NCBI GenBank assembly: GCA_944392795.1
Contig: CALXXX010000037.1
Span: forward strand, 601-64,600
Direction: 5' to 3'
DNA: 64,000 nucleotides
From: an uncultured Alphaproteobacteria bacterium
Lineage (GTDB): Bacteria; Pseudomonadota; Alphaproteobacteria; CAAHEQ01; UBA3637
A model generated the notes under the pieces. The model did no database searches, had not been told where the DNA came from, and was given only the letters and a program-made list of their open reading frames with translations. The translations under genes were made by a program, and so were the position numbers. Below, in pieces: positions 17,805 to 36,049 of the stretch (the first letter of the stretch is position 1; every line of letters starts with the position of its first letter).

Positions 17805-18794
17805 CTATGTAATCGCTGTCACAGCACGAATATTGCCGTTACGATTAATCTGAACGACCCGCAGCTTATCCCTCATTTCTCGCAGCGTTTTATCTCTATC
17901 TATTGTTGGTGTTGTTCTCATAATACGAGCAACAAATGCTTTATACGCCTCTTCAGGATTCTCCGCATGAATCGTAGCAAAACAGTTTTCATGACCAGAG
18001 CCCATTAATTCCCAAATAGCACTGGCATTTGATGTTGAAATCTCTCCTCCGATAATCGCATCAGGAGTAAAACGAACGACTAAGTCAATAACACGTGGAT
18101 AAGTAAATCCATTCGTTTGATCTGTACGAGGTAAAACAATATGCACACGATTCTTATGTGGAACAATAAGTTCCCGCGTATCCTCAATCGTTAAAATACG
18201 TTTATGCTCATCCACTAATTTAATCATATTATTCAAAAATGTCGTTTTACCTGTTGCAGTTCCACCGCTGATAAGAATATGCTCTCCTTTACGTATTGAA
18301 AGCAACAAGCGATCATAAGGATCATCAGGATCTTCTACATTTGCTAACTTACTTAATGGACGTAGACGTTCCCCTTGCTCCAAATTAAAGTCTTTAAACT
18401 CTATTCCTACATCTTCTTTATAAACACGAATAGCAAGAGCAACACCACCCGTTAAATCATCATTATCATACATGACGTTACGACCACTAATACCCGTAAA
18501 ACGATGACCTCCGGGAAGTGTAGCATAAACAACCGGAGTTCCTTCTGTCGGTTCAAAAGAATAATCATAACTGTTTGCTATAATATAAAGAATATTATTT
18601 AAATATTCTCGTGTTAGCTTAGGATCAATCTGTTCAACCCACGGATATGCTCTTTTACCTCGCAAACGAAGCCAAATAGAACCTGGATGATCTACTGCAA
18701 CCTCTTCTACATTATCTTGTGTATACCAATAGGATAAAGGTCGTAATGCCGACTCCAAAACTTTATAGGTTTCGGAAATGGATAACTCTGGCAT
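17805..18794 (-). CDS. virB11: VirB11-family type IV secretion ATPase
   Basis: 329 aa. Walker A ISGGTATGKTTFLN and the conserved VirB11/CagAlpha-like fold signature (…RVIDLVVRFTPDAIIGGEI…). It is the last gene of the virB8-virB11 operon. Confidence 0.85.
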   Translation of the reverse strand: MPELSISETYKVLESALRPLSYWYTQDNVEEVAVDHPGSIWLRLRGKRAYPWVEQIDPKLTREYLNNILYIIANSYDYSFEPTEGTPVVYATLPGGHRFTGISGRNVMYDNDDLTGGVALAIRVYKEDVGIEFKDFNLEQGERLRPLSKLANVEDPDDPYDRLLLSIRKGEHILISGGTATGKTTFLNNMIKLVDEHKRILTIEDTRELIVPHKNRVHIVLPRTDQTNGFTYPRVIDLVVRFTPDAIIGGEISTSNASAIWELMGSGHENCFATIHAENPEEAYKAFVARIMRTTPTIDRDKTLREMRDKLRVVQINRNGNIRAVTAIT

Positions 18795-18806
18795 TTGCGG
18801 CTCCTT

Positions 18807-21800
18807 TTAGAACAATTCCAAAGAAGAGGAAGAACTACCTCCTCCTGGCGTTGTCACTTGCTGTTGTTGTTGTAAAGGCGTTGAAATTCTCTCTGCCTGT
18901 TCAGATGAAGGATAAGAACTTAACCCTTGCTGAGAATTATACAATTCTTCTAAAGTCGATGGGCGTCCACCCGAGGAAACGGATTGAGAGCTGGTCGGTG
19001 TAGGCTGATAAAGCGTTTGTGTCTCATCAGCTTGATTGGTTCCGATTTCTTCCTGTGTCTCACCCTCTCCTGTATATCCAGGATCATAATATACCTCATC
19101 TGCTGGTGCAAATGTGCTTTGATCAGGAGAAGAAATATCTGCAGTAGAAGCAGCTCCTCCCATCGAACCGCCTACCGGACGCTTAGCCATTCCATATTGT
19201 TGCCCTGGTGTCCTAGCCTCAGTTGTATCTGCACCCATCTCAGCCTCATAATCATCAACATCATCTTCTTCTGTCCTCAACCATAAATCCTCCATAGCAA
19301 AGATGGTCATCCTTGTACCTGCCGGAACAAAAACAACTGGCGGAGTAGAAGAAGATTCCTCAATTAACTGATTAAAAATCATTTCCATATCATCAATAAA
19401 ATTCTCACGAGCTTCTTGAGCTGCCTGTGCACGATCGGATTGAGAAGAAGTGCCATAATTTTGATTTTCAGTTACAGTTTCATCAGAAGCGACCAAATAG
19501 CTAATTGCCGAAACCATTGTAGATTGTAAGATTGGTTTACCATAACGTGCTAAGAACATTTCATCCAAATAAGCAGCAACACCTCCACGACCTTGAGCGT
19601 CGCCAGAAATCGCTTGAAGTGTAAAAGAACCACCATCCGGACGAATTAATCGTTCCCAAGAAATCTCCAATTTAGCGACATGATTTGTTCCAGGACTTCC
19701 TGTTACAGAACCTATAAGCTTACTACCCGCAGGAATAATAATATTCCGACCATCTTCTGCATAAACATGACGTTCTACAATTGCCGATGCTGGAACAGAC
19801 ATATAACGACTGTCAATTGAACGCTGTAAAACAGCAGGAATAGCTTTATCTTTTAGTATCATTCGGCTCATATCCACAGGCCAAGAAGAAACCGTTTTTG
19901 AGCCAAAGTCTTTAGCTTGTTTTTTCTTAGCTCTAGCCAAGACACGACCATCTGGTGTAATCTTAGATAGTTTTGAACCAATTCCCTGTTTCATTCCTTC
20001 TCTGCGCTTTGCTAATAAATTACGCATTTGAGCGGCCTGTTCGGGAGAAAATTGAAGGATTTCTTGACCTGTAAATTTCTGATCAGAGCCTGCTCTTAAC
20101 TCATCCGCCAACAAGTTATTAGACAATGAATAAGGAACACCATTTTTTAACTGACCAACCACAGCTCCTGTCATCGGATTAATAATAGAATTATCTGGTA
20201 AAACCATAAATTCTTTATCTCCGATAGCAATCCGACGTCCGCCTAAATTTAAGCCTCCAGCACCAAGACCTGTTCCTTCCAATAAATTACGTCCAGATAC
20301 AAATCCTGTCGCGCCGCTTTCAGGAGACCATCTCCCTATTATATTACCATCTGGGCCATATAAAACGCCGTCTCGTAATGTTCCTATGACATTTCCATTC
20401 AAGTCACGAATGACTCCGTTAGCATCAATTGTTCCAATTAAATTGCCATTCGCATCATAAACATAACCGCATTTAATTGTATAAAGAACTTGACCTTTTT
20501 CATCGCGAATCGTCCCATTATATTGGGCATTCATACAATTATCATCTGAAGTCCATTTCCCTATAATGTTACCGTCTGGATCTAATAAATTACCATTTTC
20601 ATCTATACGACCAATTACATTTCCATTCAAATCACGAATGACCCCATTAGCATCAATTGTTCCGATTAAATTGCCATTTGCATCATAAACCTTACCACAT
20701 TTAATTGTATAAAGTAACTTACCACTGTTATCATGAACAGTTCCATTATATTGAGCATTTAAACAATCCAGAGAATCTGGAGACCATTTTCCAATAATAT
20801 TCCCATTTGCATCAAGTAAATTGCCATTTTCATCTATACGGCCAATGATATTACCATTCAAATCACGAATAACACCATTTTCATCAATCGTTCCAATTAA
20901 ATTGCCATTTGCATCATAAACTTGTCCACATTTAATTGTGTAAAGCAAATTACCTGCATTATCTGTAACAGTTCCATTATACTTACTATTAACACAAGTA
21001 TCATCGCCAAACAATGTTATACTTCCATCTGGATTAATACGACCCCACGGTTTTCCGTTAATCATAATCGTACCATCTGGCAACACTTCACCTATTTGCT
21101 CACCATTCGTATTATAGACTTTACCATCTTTAATATAGCCGATAATATTACCATTTGCATCATACAGATAATTCGGCATTGTCGTAATTCCATTTTTACC
21201 TACTTTACCAATAATATTACCTGCATTATCGTAAATATTACCTTCATCATCAATTCGTCCGATGATATTGCCATTTGGATCATAGAGCGTACCATCAGCA
21301 CCTACGGTAAATAAGTGCTTTCCTTTATTATCAAAAACACGACCGGCTTTATCCATTGTCCCCATAATTTTGCCATCTTCATCAAACAGCAATTGTTCCT
21401 TTTTCAAATCCATTACACGACCGATCACATTACCTTCATTATCTACGACAGTACCATCTCCTAACACTTTGCCGATTACTTCGCCTTTGCTGTTAACAAC
21501 TTGACCGTTTCGTAGTACTCGACCAATGACATTCCCATTTTCGTCAACAACGATACCGCGTTTTAAAACTTTACCTATTACATTACCGTCATGATCGATA
21601 ACCGTCCCATCAAACAAAGAGCAACCGATAGAAACACCACTGATATCTACAACATCAGCGTCTGGTAACGTCCGTCCAAGAAGTGTTCCATCTTCAGCTA
21701 TAACTGATCCTTTTTGAACAACACCTCCGACATTGGTTCCATCAAGAGATACGGCCGAACCATCTAAGTTCAACACAGCTACTACTTGACCATTTCCATC

Positions 21801-35242: not shown

Positions 35243-35978
35243 AAGGCGCTGTCTGAGTAATTCCCTGACTTGACATCACCTTCAACTGCTCTGCCAAAAG
35301 TTGATTACCTCTACGATACTCTTGCTCCGCAGACATAATGACCTGAACTGTATCATTCGCTTTTCCGATTAGAGTATCCTCTCCTGACGGAGGTGTCACT
35401 TCTTTCTTGGAAGCTTCACTTAAATAAGCCAACGCATTAGCATAACCATCTGTTAAAGCAGCTTGAGCAACTTCTTTTTGAAGCTGTTTTCTTTCTTCTG
35501 TTTCTGCATTTGTTTGCTGCTGTAAAGCCTCTCCGGTTGGAGGCAATAACTTATCCTTAATAACCATTTGTGTTTGTTGCACTGATTCAAAGACTTGTTC
35601 TGTTAATCCTGCTTTTTGCATCTCCTCTGTTGCTGTAGAAACGGAGGAAAGAACGCTATCGACGGACGCTTGTCCAGATGATAGTAAAGAACCTACAGCA
35701 TCTTTTGCTGCTCCTTTTGCAGAATCGACCGCCCCTGAAACAGTATCAACAGCTTCCGAGGCCATTTTCTGAATATCCCCAATAGAGGCAAGCATCTGCT
35801 GACCTTTTTTAACCATTTCCATCAATTGTTGAACTTGAGCCGTCATCTGCATAACATTTGCAACGACCTGTGCCAGCTGCGCCGCATCAGAAACAGAATA
35901 TGCGTGAGCCGAAGTTGGAGCAACTAGACTGAATGACAATCCAAAACAAAGTCCGATCCCTATTTTCTTAATAAGCAT
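35232..35978 (-). CDS. VirB5-like secreted helical protein (paralog), about 248 aa from the internal ATG (ORF frame extends to 36038)
   Basis: Start MLIKKIGIGLCFGLSFSLVAPTSAHA is preceded by GGAAGAAGGGAGA. The helical SDAAQLAQVVANVMQMTAQVQQLMEMVKKGQQ segment is reminiscent of the TrbJ/VirB5 N-region. Confidence 0.38.
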   Translation of the reverse strand: MLIKKIGIGLCFGLSFSLVAPTSAHAYSVSDAAQLAQVVANVMQMTAQVQQLMEMVKKGQQMLASIGDIQKMASEAVDTVSGAVDSAKGAAKDAVGSLLSSGQASVDSVLSSVSTATEEMQKAGLTEQVFESVQQTQMVIKDKLLPPTGEALQQQTNAETEERKQLQKEVAQAALTDGYANALAYLSEASKKEVTPPSGEDTLIGKANDTVQVIMSAEQEYRRGNQLLAEQLKVMSSQGITQTAPYVD

Positions 35979-36021
35979 ATTTATCTCCCTTCTTCCTACG
36001 CAATATAGCTGTACTTTATTT

Positions 36022-36049
36022 ATTATAAACCTGAACAACTACCCTGTAA
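36022..36049 (-). promoter_or_regulatory. Candidate sigma70-like promoter for the VirB5-like/T4SS operon
   Basis: On the minus strand, TTACAG-N16-TATAAT about 45 nt upstream of the ATG at 35978. Confidence 0.25.

Follow-up and report, generated by a model that had tools for sequence, protein, structure and literature searches.

A highly modified type IV secretion system with a giant VirB10 in uncultured gut and rumen Alphaproteobacteria

Type IV secretion genes documented in Rickettsiales are scattered over islets, one of which in Rickettsia has the order rvhB8-II / rvhB7-rvhB8-I-rvhB9-II-rvhB10-rvhB11, and the Trw system of Bartonella, which has no coupling protein, uses duplicated VirB5 and VirB2 variants for erythrocyte adhesion (PMC4676284). 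The nearest cultured relatives of the locus described here are colinear, complete conjugative systems on plasmids of Microvirga, Erythrobacter and Sphingosinicella; these have a VirB10 of normal size and a single VirB8, whereas the gut system has a giant VirB10 and a pair of VirB8 proteins. Its VirB9, VirB10 and VirB11 are 36-44% identical to those of the plasmid relatives. Judged by sequence similarity, its nearest identifiable relatives are conjugative systems of the MPF-T type that free-living Alphaproteobacteria carry on plasmids, so that of the three affinities considered in an earlier note on this DNA (rvh, cag or conjugative MPF-T) the last one is favoured.

The window, a 64-kb stretch of DNA analysed at its full length, carries a genuine yet highly modified type IV secretion system that belongs to a whole gut and rumen lineage. 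We suggest that some 34 kb (2218-36038) encode a type IVA (VirB/P-type) system that is fixed in the chromosome, passed on vertically and typical of a large lineage of uncultured Alphaproteobacteria with reduced genomes from gut and rumen, in which a conjugative system has been domesticated into a contact-dependent machine; the genes for its VirB4, VirB3 and VirB2 would lie in one more islet. To this reading, taken jointly in all its parts, we give a probability of about 0.55. Targeted literature searches returned no description of the system, which thus appears to be a new variant; the earlier note had also supposed an undescribed lineage, and what changes is that the locus is not a one-off but lineage-wide, syntenic and strongly conserved.

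The core operon and its relatives

The minus-strand operon from 36038 to 17805 encodes VirB8', a 53-aa VirB7 lipoprotein, VirB8, VirB9, a 2443-aa VirB10 and VirB11; the genes of five secreted helical proteins come before them. All eleven open reading frames lie where the earlier note had placed them, and the gene order it proposed, virB8'-virB7-virB8-virB9-virB10-virB11, agrees with profile and homology matches (Pfam, NCBIfam and PDB profiles support the VirB8, VirB9 and VirB10 assignments). As an outline of the whole system that operon proved too narrow, since two further conserved operons, one of them convergent and with three VirB6 paralogues, occupy 2218-17762.

The divergent second VirB8 paralogue, VirB8' (28979-29599; 206 aa, bitopic, with an NPLG motif), matches VirB8 by BLASTP at 1e-13, its lineage profile reaches TrwG and VirB8 structures in the PDB down to 3.3e-7, and hhalign links it to the VirB8 profile (99.9%, 3e-32) and to Microvirga VirB8 (99.5%, 4e-23); it was found in 76 loci. 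The lipoprotein next to it (28717-28878), the VirB7 equivalent, has the lipobox LLVA|C, a median identity of 69% over 79 loci and homology to the small reading frame before virB8 in Microvirga (41%, 4.5e-6) and Erythrobacter. VirB8 itself (27931-28695, 254 aa) is recognised by Pfam VirB8 (9.7e-16), by Bartonella and Brucella VirB8 and TraE structures (down to 8.6e-10) and in a tblastn search with Microvirga VirB8 (4e-25).

VirB9 (26168-27838) has a CagX domain at aa 97-358, which exceeds the Pfam gathering score (3.8e-12), and at its C-terminus a SPOR domain of the peptidoglycan-binding kind (aa 478-554, Pfam E=0.0015); it also contains an insert rich in Gly, Ala and Pro and a linker rich in Gln and Pro. 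Of the 120 homologues listed, a sizeable minority have a precomputed PF05036 assignment. It is 36-42% identical to VirB9 of Microvirga and Erythrobacter, with more than 1,500 homologues and 148 GTDB species genomes. VirB11 (17805-18794), with a Walker A box at aa 177 and a T2SSE match of 6.7e-21, scores 2e-40 against TIGR02788, yet far under its curated cutoff; it shares 40% identity with its homologue in Microvirga (6e-80), and its median identity in 74 loci is 77%.

VirB10 (18807-26138) begins with a short cytoplasmic tail, a transmembrane helix at about aa 20-40 and an N-domain of about 150 aa, continues with some 1,700 aa of beta-hairpin repeats of about 18 residues, and ends with the TrbI barrel (aa 2094-2287, Pfam 4.2e-31) and an acidic Ser/Thr/Gln-rich tail. 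The repeats match Bflower_2 (2.2e-117, 17 stretches), Bflower (1e-47) and DUF3659 (6e-33). A length of 2,030-2,680 aa is kept in essentially all complete loci, and no indel separates strains that are 99.4% identical. The barrel shares 44% identity with that of Microvirga VirB10, and its best match among solved structures is ComB10 (2e-16), followed by Xanthomonas VirB10 (6e-11).

The ComB10 match, together with the missing linked relaxase, might be taken to indicate that the machine takes up or releases DNA, in the manner of Helicobacter ComB or the Neisseria GGI, and is not a protein or contact system, and ComB-type systems are also divided into separate operons. We consider this very improbable: as far as we know ComB lacks VirB11, VirD4 and VirB5, all of which occur in this locus or its relatives, the systems nearest to it overall are conjugative, and the diversifying secreted proteins suggest contact with a target cell.

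As the earlier note had pointed out, the operon parallels the Rickettsia rvh islet (PMC4676284). The likeness extends to the VirB8 pair around VirB7, the expansion of VirB6 and the scattering over islets, traits which possibly arose by convergence; beyond them the gut system has a beta-flower-repeat VirB10 and a fusion of VirB9 with SPOR.

Secreted proteins upstream of the core

Three VirB5-like paralogues and a Ser/Gly protein had been read upstream of virB8', all on the minus strand, and our analysis redistributes these roles. The VirB5-type domain itself sits at the C-terminus of the Ser/Gly protein p823 (32010-34481; PF07996 at aa 516-657, E=2.5e-6, the score of 28.5 bits exceeding the cutoff of 24.7), after a signal peptide and about 500 aa of Ser/Gly/Trp-rich repeats. 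Orthologues occupy position 3 in 50 loci and measure about 250-470 aa elsewhere, the N-terminal extension being specific to the window's clade; the protein is a candidate pilus-tip protein or adhesin. A jackhmmer search seeded with this domain recruits p268 (35232-36038; signal peptide; likely true start at the ATG at 35978, MLIKK...), and in this respect the earlier view holds, p268 alone matching PF07996 only at E=3.1. It evolves fast, with 73-78% identity in the closest MAGs and about 25% or nothing detectable beyond.

The two other supposed paralogues form separate position-specific families by jackhmmer. For p249 (34493-35242; secreted, helical, 48 orthologues at position 4) there was no jackhmmer link to the VirB5 group and no Pfam family. 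For p251 (31258-32013; secreted, helical, position 2) there are 55 orthologues, none linked to the other groups, and its profile gave nothing significant against the PDB or against p823C, p268 and p249; its match to NCBIfam TrbJ NF010452 (E=1.3e-4, far under the cutoff) would make it possibly TrbJ/VirB5-like. Directly upstream of virB8', at position 1 in 61 loci, there is always the secreted coiled-coil protein p546 (29609-31249), with no Pfam family; its AF2 model (pLDDT 63) consists mainly of long helices, and Foldseek against the PDB returned generic coiled coils only.

VirB6 operon, third unit and missing components

Between the stop codons of virB11 and of the 198-aa gene facing it lies a symmetric bidirectional intrinsic terminator hairpin (17763-17804; AAAAAAAA-GCACATCTT-A-AAGATGTGC-TTTTTT), common to two convergent operons; the earlier note had anticipated it. 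The plus-strand operon (5954-17762) starts with virB6a (5954-7396, 480 aa), which by transmembrane prediction joins a secreted Cys-rich N-domain to a six-helix VirB6 core and matches the VirB6c family profile by hhalign (100%, 5.3e-52). VirB6b (8460-9716, 418 aa, 8 TM) matches the same profile at 99.9% and 6.5e-32, and VirB6c (9719-12238, 839 aa, about 11 TM) by itself reaches Pfam TrbL at E=0.006. An exhaustive search gave 677 VirB6c relatives, and 21 of the 66 sampled match PF04610 TrbL/VirB6 (best 1.8e-11), with no other recurrent family. Between the first two paralogues, d350 (7400-8452) combines a signal peptide and a single hydrophobic helix with a long tail of Ser, Thr, Gly and Asn that is disordered; it reaches Pfam TrbC/VirB2 only at E=1 and, being present in loci L085 and L086 and missing in L092, L093 and L095, is limited to the window's clade. 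One may speculate that it is a derivative of a VirB2-like pilin.

A double Xre-type HTH regulator (12351-13292; Pfam HTH_3 twice, 4.5e-25) takes the identical position in every VirB6 module examined. It is followed by d285 and d496 (13305-15712), conserved acidic helical cytoplasmic proteins with positional orthologues in L085-L095, where d496 varies from 407 to 934 aa; signal peptide, TM helix, P-loop and any Pfam or PHROG family are absent from both, and they may be candidate substrates, chaperones or adaptors. The exported d486 (15713-17173) shows N0/STN-like and secretin-end-like motifs in an alignment of 7 orthologues, with profile matches only to Secretin_N (E=0.015) and HasR STN (E=0.3) and an unusable single-sequence AF2 model (pLDDT 35); hypothetically, it is an extra ring or outer-membrane component. 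The last gene, d198 (17166-17762), encodes a bitopic membrane protein with a TM helix at aa 77, whose periplasmic C-domain (about 95 aa) is conserved (mean column identity 55% in 7 sequences).

The third unit, on the minus strand from 5843 to 2218, comprises d215 (5196-5843), d619 (3266-5125) and d320 (2218-3180; 3 TM and a cytoplasmic domain) and adjoins the VirB6 module in L085, L086, L092 and L093-95. In most relatives it runs on into virD4, and in the window it stops at glgA. Homologues of d320 occur in 59 and of d215 in 34 of 80 metagenomic VirD4 loci, arranged as d215-(520-695 aa)-(~160 aa)-d320-virD4 with d619 in second place; VirD4 scores 4e-111 in L080.

No virD4 was found in the 64-kb window, nor after d320 in L086, L087, L092, L093 and L095. 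This absence from its usual place in the window and its nearest relatives means that the window's clade may not translocate substrates, and it favours, for this clade especially, an organelle for adhesion only, like the Bartonella Trw system, whose variable surface structures bind a host or partner cell without translocation; the fast-evolving secreted helical proteins upstream of the core, of which two belong to the VirB5 family, are in keeping with this. We hold it possible but rather unlikely, as most of the wider lineage retains a well-conserved virD4 (57-99% identical among gut and rumen loci) in an operon linked to the system, VirB11 is extremely conserved, an array of VirB2 pilins was not seen, and absence from one window says little about a whole genome.

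VirB4, VirB3 and VirB2, whose absence from the operon, like that of virD4, the earlier note had pointed out, are absent across the window as well, and so is a relaxase; none of the four turned up in 175 loci (2.8 Mb) that cover 10 kb around each of the three modules. The references used came from the nearest related system and readily pick up VirB8-B11 and VirD4. Either these genes lie in another islet or they are truly missing. In the latter case one would deal with a machine derived from a type IV system and driven by VirB11, whether or not VirD4 takes part, in which the giant VirB10 and the VirB9-SPOR scaffold have a new role, and the heavy remodelling of the envelope-spanning parts would agree with it. 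To our knowledge, however, every characterised type IV system has VirB4, its one universal component; Rickettsiales offer a documented case of scattered islets, the modules here are split in a like manner, and the absence concerns 10 kb on either side of each module. We therefore regard a VirB4-less machine as improbable.

For the domesticated system that we prefer, a mechanism may be drawn from established type IV architecture, from which we infer where the subunits sit, that the repeats are periplasmic and what type of substrate is involved. VirB7, VirB9 and VirB10 would form the outer-membrane core complex, anchored to the cell wall by SPOR. The topology of VirB10, with its N-terminal TM helix and C-terminal barrel, would place the repeat mass in the periplasm, where in a multimeric ring it may build a very large conserved scaffold, analogous to the enlarged core complexes of Cag and Dot/Icm. 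VirB8, VirB8' and VirB6a-c would make the inner-membrane platform, VirB11 would supply energy, and the fast-evolving secreted proteins would form or decorate an extracellular tip that contacts the target cell. Where virD4 is present, as in most relatives, substrates probably reach the channel aided by d215, d619 and d320 from its operon. The output would most likely be contact-dependent protein delivery to, or adhesion to, a host, protist or bacterium; no effector was identified, which we count against this reading.

Lineage, conservation and history

At least 148 species-level MAGs of uncultured gut and rumen Alphaproteobacteria carry the system, and all 80 kept genome matches are such MAGs (a few mislabelled), which replaces the Rhizobiales-like genome assumed before. 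The host lineage is probably RF32/Rs-D84, orders in which such gut MAGs with reduced genomes of about 1.6 Mb have been placed. RF32-type gut Alphaproteobacteria, with genomes of this size, lack amino-acid biosynthesis (PMC8199421), which fits dependence on a partner, and the system hints at an intimate contact of common gut bacteria with other cells.

The domestication would have started from the colinear conjugative type still found on the plasmids of Microvirga, Erythrobacter and Sphingosinicella. In the gut lineage the relaxase would have left the neighbourhood and the genes been broken into at least three units, VirB8 duplicated around VirB7 and VirB6 triplicated, while VirB9 would have gained its SPOR tail and VirB10 about 1,900 extra periplasmic residues of beta-flower repeats. 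The three or more transcription units differ in relative position between genomes, and in one MAG, JAFPYW01, modules lie on separate contigs (20 and 48).

That the nearest relatives are conjugative, and that virB10 has a nonsense codon in two metagenomic contigs and is split in locus L028, could point to a mobile element of the conjugative kind, whether an ICE or the remnant of a plasmid, or to a decaying remnant of such an element. This explanation is largely refuted: the chromosomal neighbour folD/surA is retained across many genera (folD upstream of the core operon in at least 30 of 84 loci), relaxase, integrase and tRNA are absent from the locus, its GC content equals that of the flanks with no compositional break, and more than 70 genomes have every reading frame intact. 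The core operon is kept in about 75-84 of 84 loci. Identities reach 85-90% for VirB11, 77-83% for VirB7, about 70% for VirB9 and 60-68% for VirB10, against 59-66% for FolD; judging by these values, purifying selection is shown to be stronger on the core than on FolD, which counts against the decayed remnant that the earlier note had kept in mind. In the upstream secreted proteins identity drops to 37% or less, or is undetectable.

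A divergent type IVA core

The open reading frames that the earlier note had described on the minus strand, from 36038 down to 17805, are all present in the sequence, and its VirB8, VirB9, VirB10 and VirB11 assignments were borne out by the profile searches that were run (Pfam and NCBIfam). VirB11 (17805-18794, minus strand) matches T2SSE at 6.7e-21 and TIGR02788 at 2e-40; the 2443-aa VirB10 (18807-26138, minus strand) has its TrbI barrel at aa 2094-2287 (4e-31); VirB9 (26168-27838, minus strand) matches the CagX/VirB9 family at 3.8e-12, over the Pfam cutoff, and VirB8 (27931-28695, minus strand) is recognised at 9.7e-16. 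NCBIfam scores of the core components are all far under the curated cutoffs, which indicates a very divergent system, and the lineage profile of VirB9 retrieved nothing from the PDB at E<=0.1.

The 206-aa protein of the operon has no Pfam match. It aligns with VirB8 over its full length (BLASTP, 1e-13), its lineage profile (45 sequences) finds TrwG, VirB8 and TraE structures in the PDB, down to 3e-7, and profile-profile comparison gives 99.9% against VirB8 and 99.5% against the VirB8 of Microvirga; what had been called VirB8-like is a genuine second VirB8 (VirB8'). The 53-aa lipoprotein does have a lipobox and is homologous to the small ORF ahead of virB8 in related plasmid systems, and for these two reasons we take it as the VirB7 equivalent. 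Homologues of VirB8, VirB9, VirB10 and VirB11 in one operon (Pfam, NCBIfam, PDB, tblastn), together with a VirB7 lipoprotein and polytopic VirB6, place the system in type IVA, and tblastn with Microvirga and Erythrobacter proteins finds VirB8-VirB11 in the window at 1e-16 to 6e-80. Downstream of virB11 lies the convergent terminator proposed earlier, a symmetric hairpin with flanking A- and T-runs (17763-17804) which is bidirectional.

The convergent plus-strand operon (5954-17762) encodes three VirB6 paralogues. An exhaustive search gave 677 relatives of VirB6c (839 aa); among 66 sampled, 21 match PF04610 (TrbL/VirB6) and no other family recurs. VirB6a (480 aa) and VirB6b (418 aa) align with the VirB6c family in hhalign at 5e-52 and 6.5e-32. 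The gene order, with other ORFs named by their length in aa, is VirB6a-d350-VirB6b-VirB6c-double-HTH-d285-d496-d486-d198, and a third unit, d215-d619-d320 (5843-2218, minus strand), is divergent alongside. Both are kept as modules in distant relatives, beside virB11 or elsewhere, and are separable in seven homologous loci of relatives (L087-89, L092-95); in the MAG JAFPYW01 the two main operons are on different contigs. The double-HTH gene (12351-13292, plus strand), whose 313-aa product joins two Xre-type HTH domains to a C-terminal domain of unknown fold, holds the same place within the VirB6 operon in every relative examined and is a candidate for a dedicated regulator of the system. As for d486, a secretin-like identity is at most a possibility, with weak scores (Secretin_N E=0.015, HasR STN E=0.3) and a single-sequence AF2 model of pLDDT 35; PHROGs gave no match to the family-less block d285/d496.

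VirB10 is 2,030-2,680 aa long in essentially all complete loci and, to our knowledge, is among the largest VirB10 proteins. It consists of a short cytoplasmic tail, one transmembrane helix, a domain of ~150 aa, repeats, the TrbI barrel and an acidic disordered tail. The repeats occupy ~1,700 aa as hairpins of ~18 residues (Bflower_2 in 17 stretches, 2e-117, plus Bflower and DUF3659), and the topology suggests that they are periplasmic. [quoted passage not shown] Near-identical DNA repeats are confined to the last ~600 bp of the array (20386-20981), with a 231-bp (77-aa) unit in 2.6 copies and 82% matches; these modules encode YNGT..D..G..LYTIKCG.VYDANGNLIGTID.NGVIRDLNGN.IG with paired Cys and are distinct from the degenerate hairpins upstream.

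In two independent metagenome contigs, otherwise 99.96% identical to the window, codon 1900 of virB10 (window position 20440) is changed from TTA to TGA, which leaves 1899 aa and a separate 531-aa ORF with the TrbI barrel; in a third locus (L028) the gene is likewise split, into 589 and 1598 aa. The nonsense allele could be a natural loss of function, a phase variant or a consensus error within near-identical repeats.

VirB9 has a C-terminal SPOR domain (E=0.0015 in the window), which is also precomputed in a sizeable minority of the homologues listed. We found no paper linking VirB9 to SPOR, and the fusion would be a natural one joining the core complex to peptidoglycan.

Probable plasmid ancestry and resemblance to rvh, Cag and Trw

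Protein search of a plasmid collection with virB11 gave ~32% identity to classical genes and 39-40% to a megaplasmid group from Microvirga, Erythrobacter and Sphingosinicella, the nearest carriers found being Microvirga sp. VF16 pMVF16-3 and plasmids of Erythrobacter aureus YH-07 and Sphingosinicella sp. BN140058. The two neighbourhoods inspected, of Microvirga and Erythrobacter, are complete colinear conjugative T4SSs with the order MobA/MobL relaxase, DnaB-like, VirB2, VirB3, VirB4, further genes, small ORF, VirB8-VirB11, VirD4. Their proteins match those of the window at 32-41% identity for VirB7 (4.5e-6), 27% for VirB8 (4e-25), 36-42% for VirB9 (1e-49), 39-44% for the VirB10 barrel (2e-42) and 40% for VirB11 (6e-80), and their VirD4 shares 33-37% with the VirD4 of the gut lineage. 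On the window components these references outscore every Pfam, PDB or NCBIfam reference, and since the plasmid matches are far stronger, the gut system is best read, from sequence comparison, as having been domesticated from this family of plasmid systems.

Both types share the order small ORF-VirB8-VirB9-VirB10-VirB11. The plasmid systems, however, have a single VirB8 and a VirB10 of 529-590 aa, whereas the gut system has the VirB8 pair and a VirB10 of >2,000 aa; it alone is chromosomal and split, with three large VirB6, the SPOR tail of VirB9 and extra secreted proteins. Relaxase and VirB2-4 are linked in the plasmid systems and none of them is linked in the gut system. A 428-aa Microvirga gene considered as a relative of the gut VirB6 family showed no similarity. 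On this reading the two types form a clear evolutionary series that leads from a plasmid conjugation system to a domesticated chromosomal organelle.

The earlier note had likened the VirB8 pair flanking a small lipoprotein to the rvh system of Rickettsiales, and the likeness agrees with the published layout of R. typhi, where rvhB9-I and rvhB8-II are followed by rvhB7, rvhB8-I, rvhB9-II, rvhB10, rvhB11 and then rvhD4, with the remaining genes in separate islets and the duplications being ancient (PMC4676284). Both systems are chromosomal, vertically inherited and arranged in islets in reduced-genome Alphaproteobacteria, both have the order divergent VirB8-VirB7-canonical VirB8-VirB9-VirB10-VirB11, and both contain multiple enlarged VirB6 paralogues. 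They differ in that rvh duplicates VirB9 and VirB4 (PMC4676284), neither of which duplications is seen in the gut system, where VirB9 is single in each locus. The R. typhi rvhD4 gene comes immediately after rvhB11, whereas the gut virB11 is followed by the terminator and the convergent operon. The rvhB3 and rvhB4 genes adjoin the rvhB6 array, unlike the gut VirB6 array, which has no virB3 or virB4 alongside; rvh is not known to have VirB5, while the gut system has VirB5-family genes, and the giant VirB10 and VirB9-SPOR are found in the gut system only. Both VirB8 paralogues match VirB8 of the plasmid type, and in the PDB their profiles find the VirB8 of Bartonella, Brucella and R388 and no Rickettsia VirB8; on these grounds we favour an independent duplication, and considering also that the nearest relatives are plasmid systems, the resemblance to rvh may be convergent. 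Besides Rickettsiales, rvh-like duplications are seen here in another lineage of Alphaproteobacteria with reduced genomes, possibly of independent origin, which bears on the question of why such duplications evolve.

With the Cag system of H. pylori, an effector-type T4SS, the gut system shares a greatly enlarged, repeat-containing VirB10 homologue (CagY) and an enlarged VirB9 homologue (CagX), which points to an expanded core complex. In the ORFs of the window that were scanned, Pfam gave no families of the Cag-specific components CagM, CagT and Cag3; CagV is matched marginally by the VirB8 profiles (E 0.15-0.19), and the Pfam 'CagX' match is to the generic VirB9 family. The repeats of cagY are recombination-prone, whereas those of the gut VirB10, which are beta-flower hairpins, evolve under purifying selection and keep a steady copy number: strains at 99.4% identity show zero indels in virB10, which argues for an array that is stable, unlike cagY. 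CagY-like recombination was rejected in view of this lack of strain indels and of the fact that the split in the two metagenome contigs is a point nonsense change.

Distribution, conservation and the secreted proteins

The claim of a Rhizobiales-like genome did not hold: the carriers are gut and rumen MAGs of uncultured Alphaproteobacteria. VirB9 has >1,500 homologues; those with a named source all come from uncultured MAGs labelled alphaproteobacterial or 'Pseudomonadota'. A genome scan places the system in at least 148 species-level genomes, and the best 80 of these are without exception MAGs from the gut or rumen of humans (Hadza among them), yak, sheep, goat, roe deer, buffalo and rabbit. 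These are widespread uncultured bacteria of the human, ruminant and rabbit gut with biosynthetic pathways missing; such MAGs have been assigned to the orders RF32 and Rs-D84, with genomes of ~1.6 Mb and loss of amino-acid biosynthesis (PMC8199421, PMC8992543). Four loci (L014, L016, L017, L078) are filed as 'uncultured Lactobacillales', 'Holdemanella biformis' and 'Limosilactobacillus gorillae', and these records are almost certainly mis-binned or mislabelled.

The system is chromosomal and vertically inherited. In at least 30 loci it has the same upstream neighbour, folD, frequently as surA-folD; there is no GC break at the operon and no tRNA, integrase or relaxase, and xerD (42755-43675) is a housekeeping gene. 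The combination that marks conjugative MPF-T elements, a MOB relaxase and a coupling protein linked to the mating-pair genes in a mobile context, is absent from the window. Compared at a distance where FolD identity is 59-66%, VirB11 retains 85-90%, VirB7 77-83%, VirB9 about 70%, VirB10 including repeats 60-68%, VirB8 and VirB8' 37-56%, and the five upstream secreted proteins 37% at most or undetectable identity. The sequences thus compared place the machine core under very strong constraint; that the locus is a mobile or decaying element, to which its descent from plasmids might otherwise point, is hardly credible. At least 148 species have kept this secretion or contact machine, and it is under tighter constraint than an enzyme of core metabolism; it probably has a central place in the way these bacteria live, and its conservation suggests reliance on direct contact with another cell. 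Diversification of the secreted proteins is as expected of exposed, target-contacting parts.

Among these proteins the earlier note had seen three small VirB5-like paralogs. That trio did not stand; two proteins, p823 and p268 (named by length in aa), are demonstrably VirB5-related. The sole significant PF07996 (VirB5) domain, over cutoff, is in the C-terminal third of the Ser/Gly-rich p823, and a Pfam scan found PF07996 in just 2 of 123 upstream proteins. Iterative HMMER (jackhmmer) over 340 upstream ORFs from relatives resolved position-specific ortholog groups of p251 (55 loci), the p823 C-terminal part (50 loci, with p268 recruited into it), p249 (48 loci) and p546 (61 loci). A BLAST single-linkage family of 186 upstream proteins was composition-inflated, jackhmmer giving these four separate groups. 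The TrbJ match of p251 is weak, and a VirB5 identity for it found no support: its ortholog profile met only heptad-repeat proteins in the PDB, and in hhalign against the p823 C-terminal part, p268 and p249 signal peptides alone matched. Structure gave no function for p546 (AF2 on an 8-sequence alignment, pLDDT 63; Foldseek against the PDB returned coiled-coil noise). A 274-aa antisense ORF (33595-34419, plus strand) lies wholly within the Ser/Gly repeats of p823 and is most likely a compositional artefact.

Missing ATPases and the probable function

The earlier note was right that VirB2, VirB3, VirB4 and VirD4 are absent from the core operon, and they are absent from the whole 64-kb window too (Pfam, Walker A, tblastn). 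With Microvirga and Erythrobacter references, tblastn found no match to VirB2, VirB3, VirB4 or relaxase in the window or the first 95 gut loci. Extended with a broadened Walker A regex (the VirD4 P-loop is APPGTGKT), the screen detected no VirB4, VirB3 or VirB2 across 175 loci, 2.8 Mb, each taken with +/-10 kb around the modules; these genes possibly lie in a fourth islet. As VirB2 candidate, d350 has a weak TrbC match only (E=1). Large flanking ORFs of relatives considered as VirB4 or VirD4 turned out to be secreted, prepilin-like or housekeeping proteins. Relaxase is missing from the window and all 175 loci. A DNA uptake or release system is in our judgement very improbable.

VirD4 itself was found in one of the 95 gut loci (L080, 4e-111), after two paralogues of d320, and metagenomes scanned with an alignment of VirD4 sequences gave 80 loci at 43-99% identity. 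Their typical layout is d215, a protein of 520-695 aa, one of ~160 aa, d320 and virD4, with virD4 last; in some loci this operon is divergent from the VirB6 array, as in the window. Compared with these loci (L099-L177), the third unit of the window stops at d320 and abuts glgA (2090-2218), as it also does in one relative (L086), which suggests that virD4 was lost or relocated in the window's clade.

We propose, with a probability of roughly 0.55, that the locus encodes a type IVA system that is functional, depends on contact and has its other ATPase and pilin genes elsewhere. Its core complex would be enlarged and cell-wall-anchored, its tip or adhesin proteins would be diversifying, and in most of the lineage it would be served by a VirD4 module that has accessory proteins of its own. 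The view that the T4SS was undescribed stands in so far as targeted literature searches found no description, while its type IVA framework is known.

An adhesion-only organelle like the Trw of Bartonella, especially in the virD4-less clade of the window, seems unlikely to us. Trw, too, is a T4SS for host adaptation that goes back to a conjugative plasmid system; it has amplified VirB5-type surface parts and lacks a coupling protein. It keeps, however, VirB2-VirB4 in a single colinear locus and amplified trwL and trwJ-I-H by tandem duplication, whereas the gut paralogues belong to ancient families, each specific to its position, and most of the lineage retains virD4. Quite improbable is a T4SS-derived machine that works without VirB4 and has also dispensed with VirB3, VirB2 and, in the window's clade, possibly VirD4, as the negative screens would permit. 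If true, VirB11 would supply its power, and a multi-megadalton ring of VirB10 beta-flowers in the periplasm, with a VirB9-SPOR cell-wall anchor, would be its centrepiece; it would be a new functional class arisen from conjugation, perhaps an organelle by which an epibiont or parasite attaches or feeds.

A prepilin-type leader (e.g. ...KGRGMIELLGV) starts large proteins of 540-800 aa without a Pfam family, one of them in the window (50601-52292, minus strand). In three relatives such a gene immediately follows virB11 in the same orientation (L014:19500-21650, L026:20236-21860, L029:19162-21572), and these genes possibly tie the T4SS to a type IV pilin-like system.

Elsewhere in the window, a single 1078-aa ORF (39505-42741, minus strand) combines LptG (Pfam, aa 6-355) with LptD (LptD_N 411-450, LptD 659-1014). 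At the junction LptG runs on in frame, with no stop codon between, into the LptD signal peptide MISLLFLVFFFLAFSVEAAEP; the relatives' loci end earlier. The ORF could be due to loss of a stop codon or to an error in sequencing; if real, the fusion would be one polypeptide spanning the inner and outer membranes.
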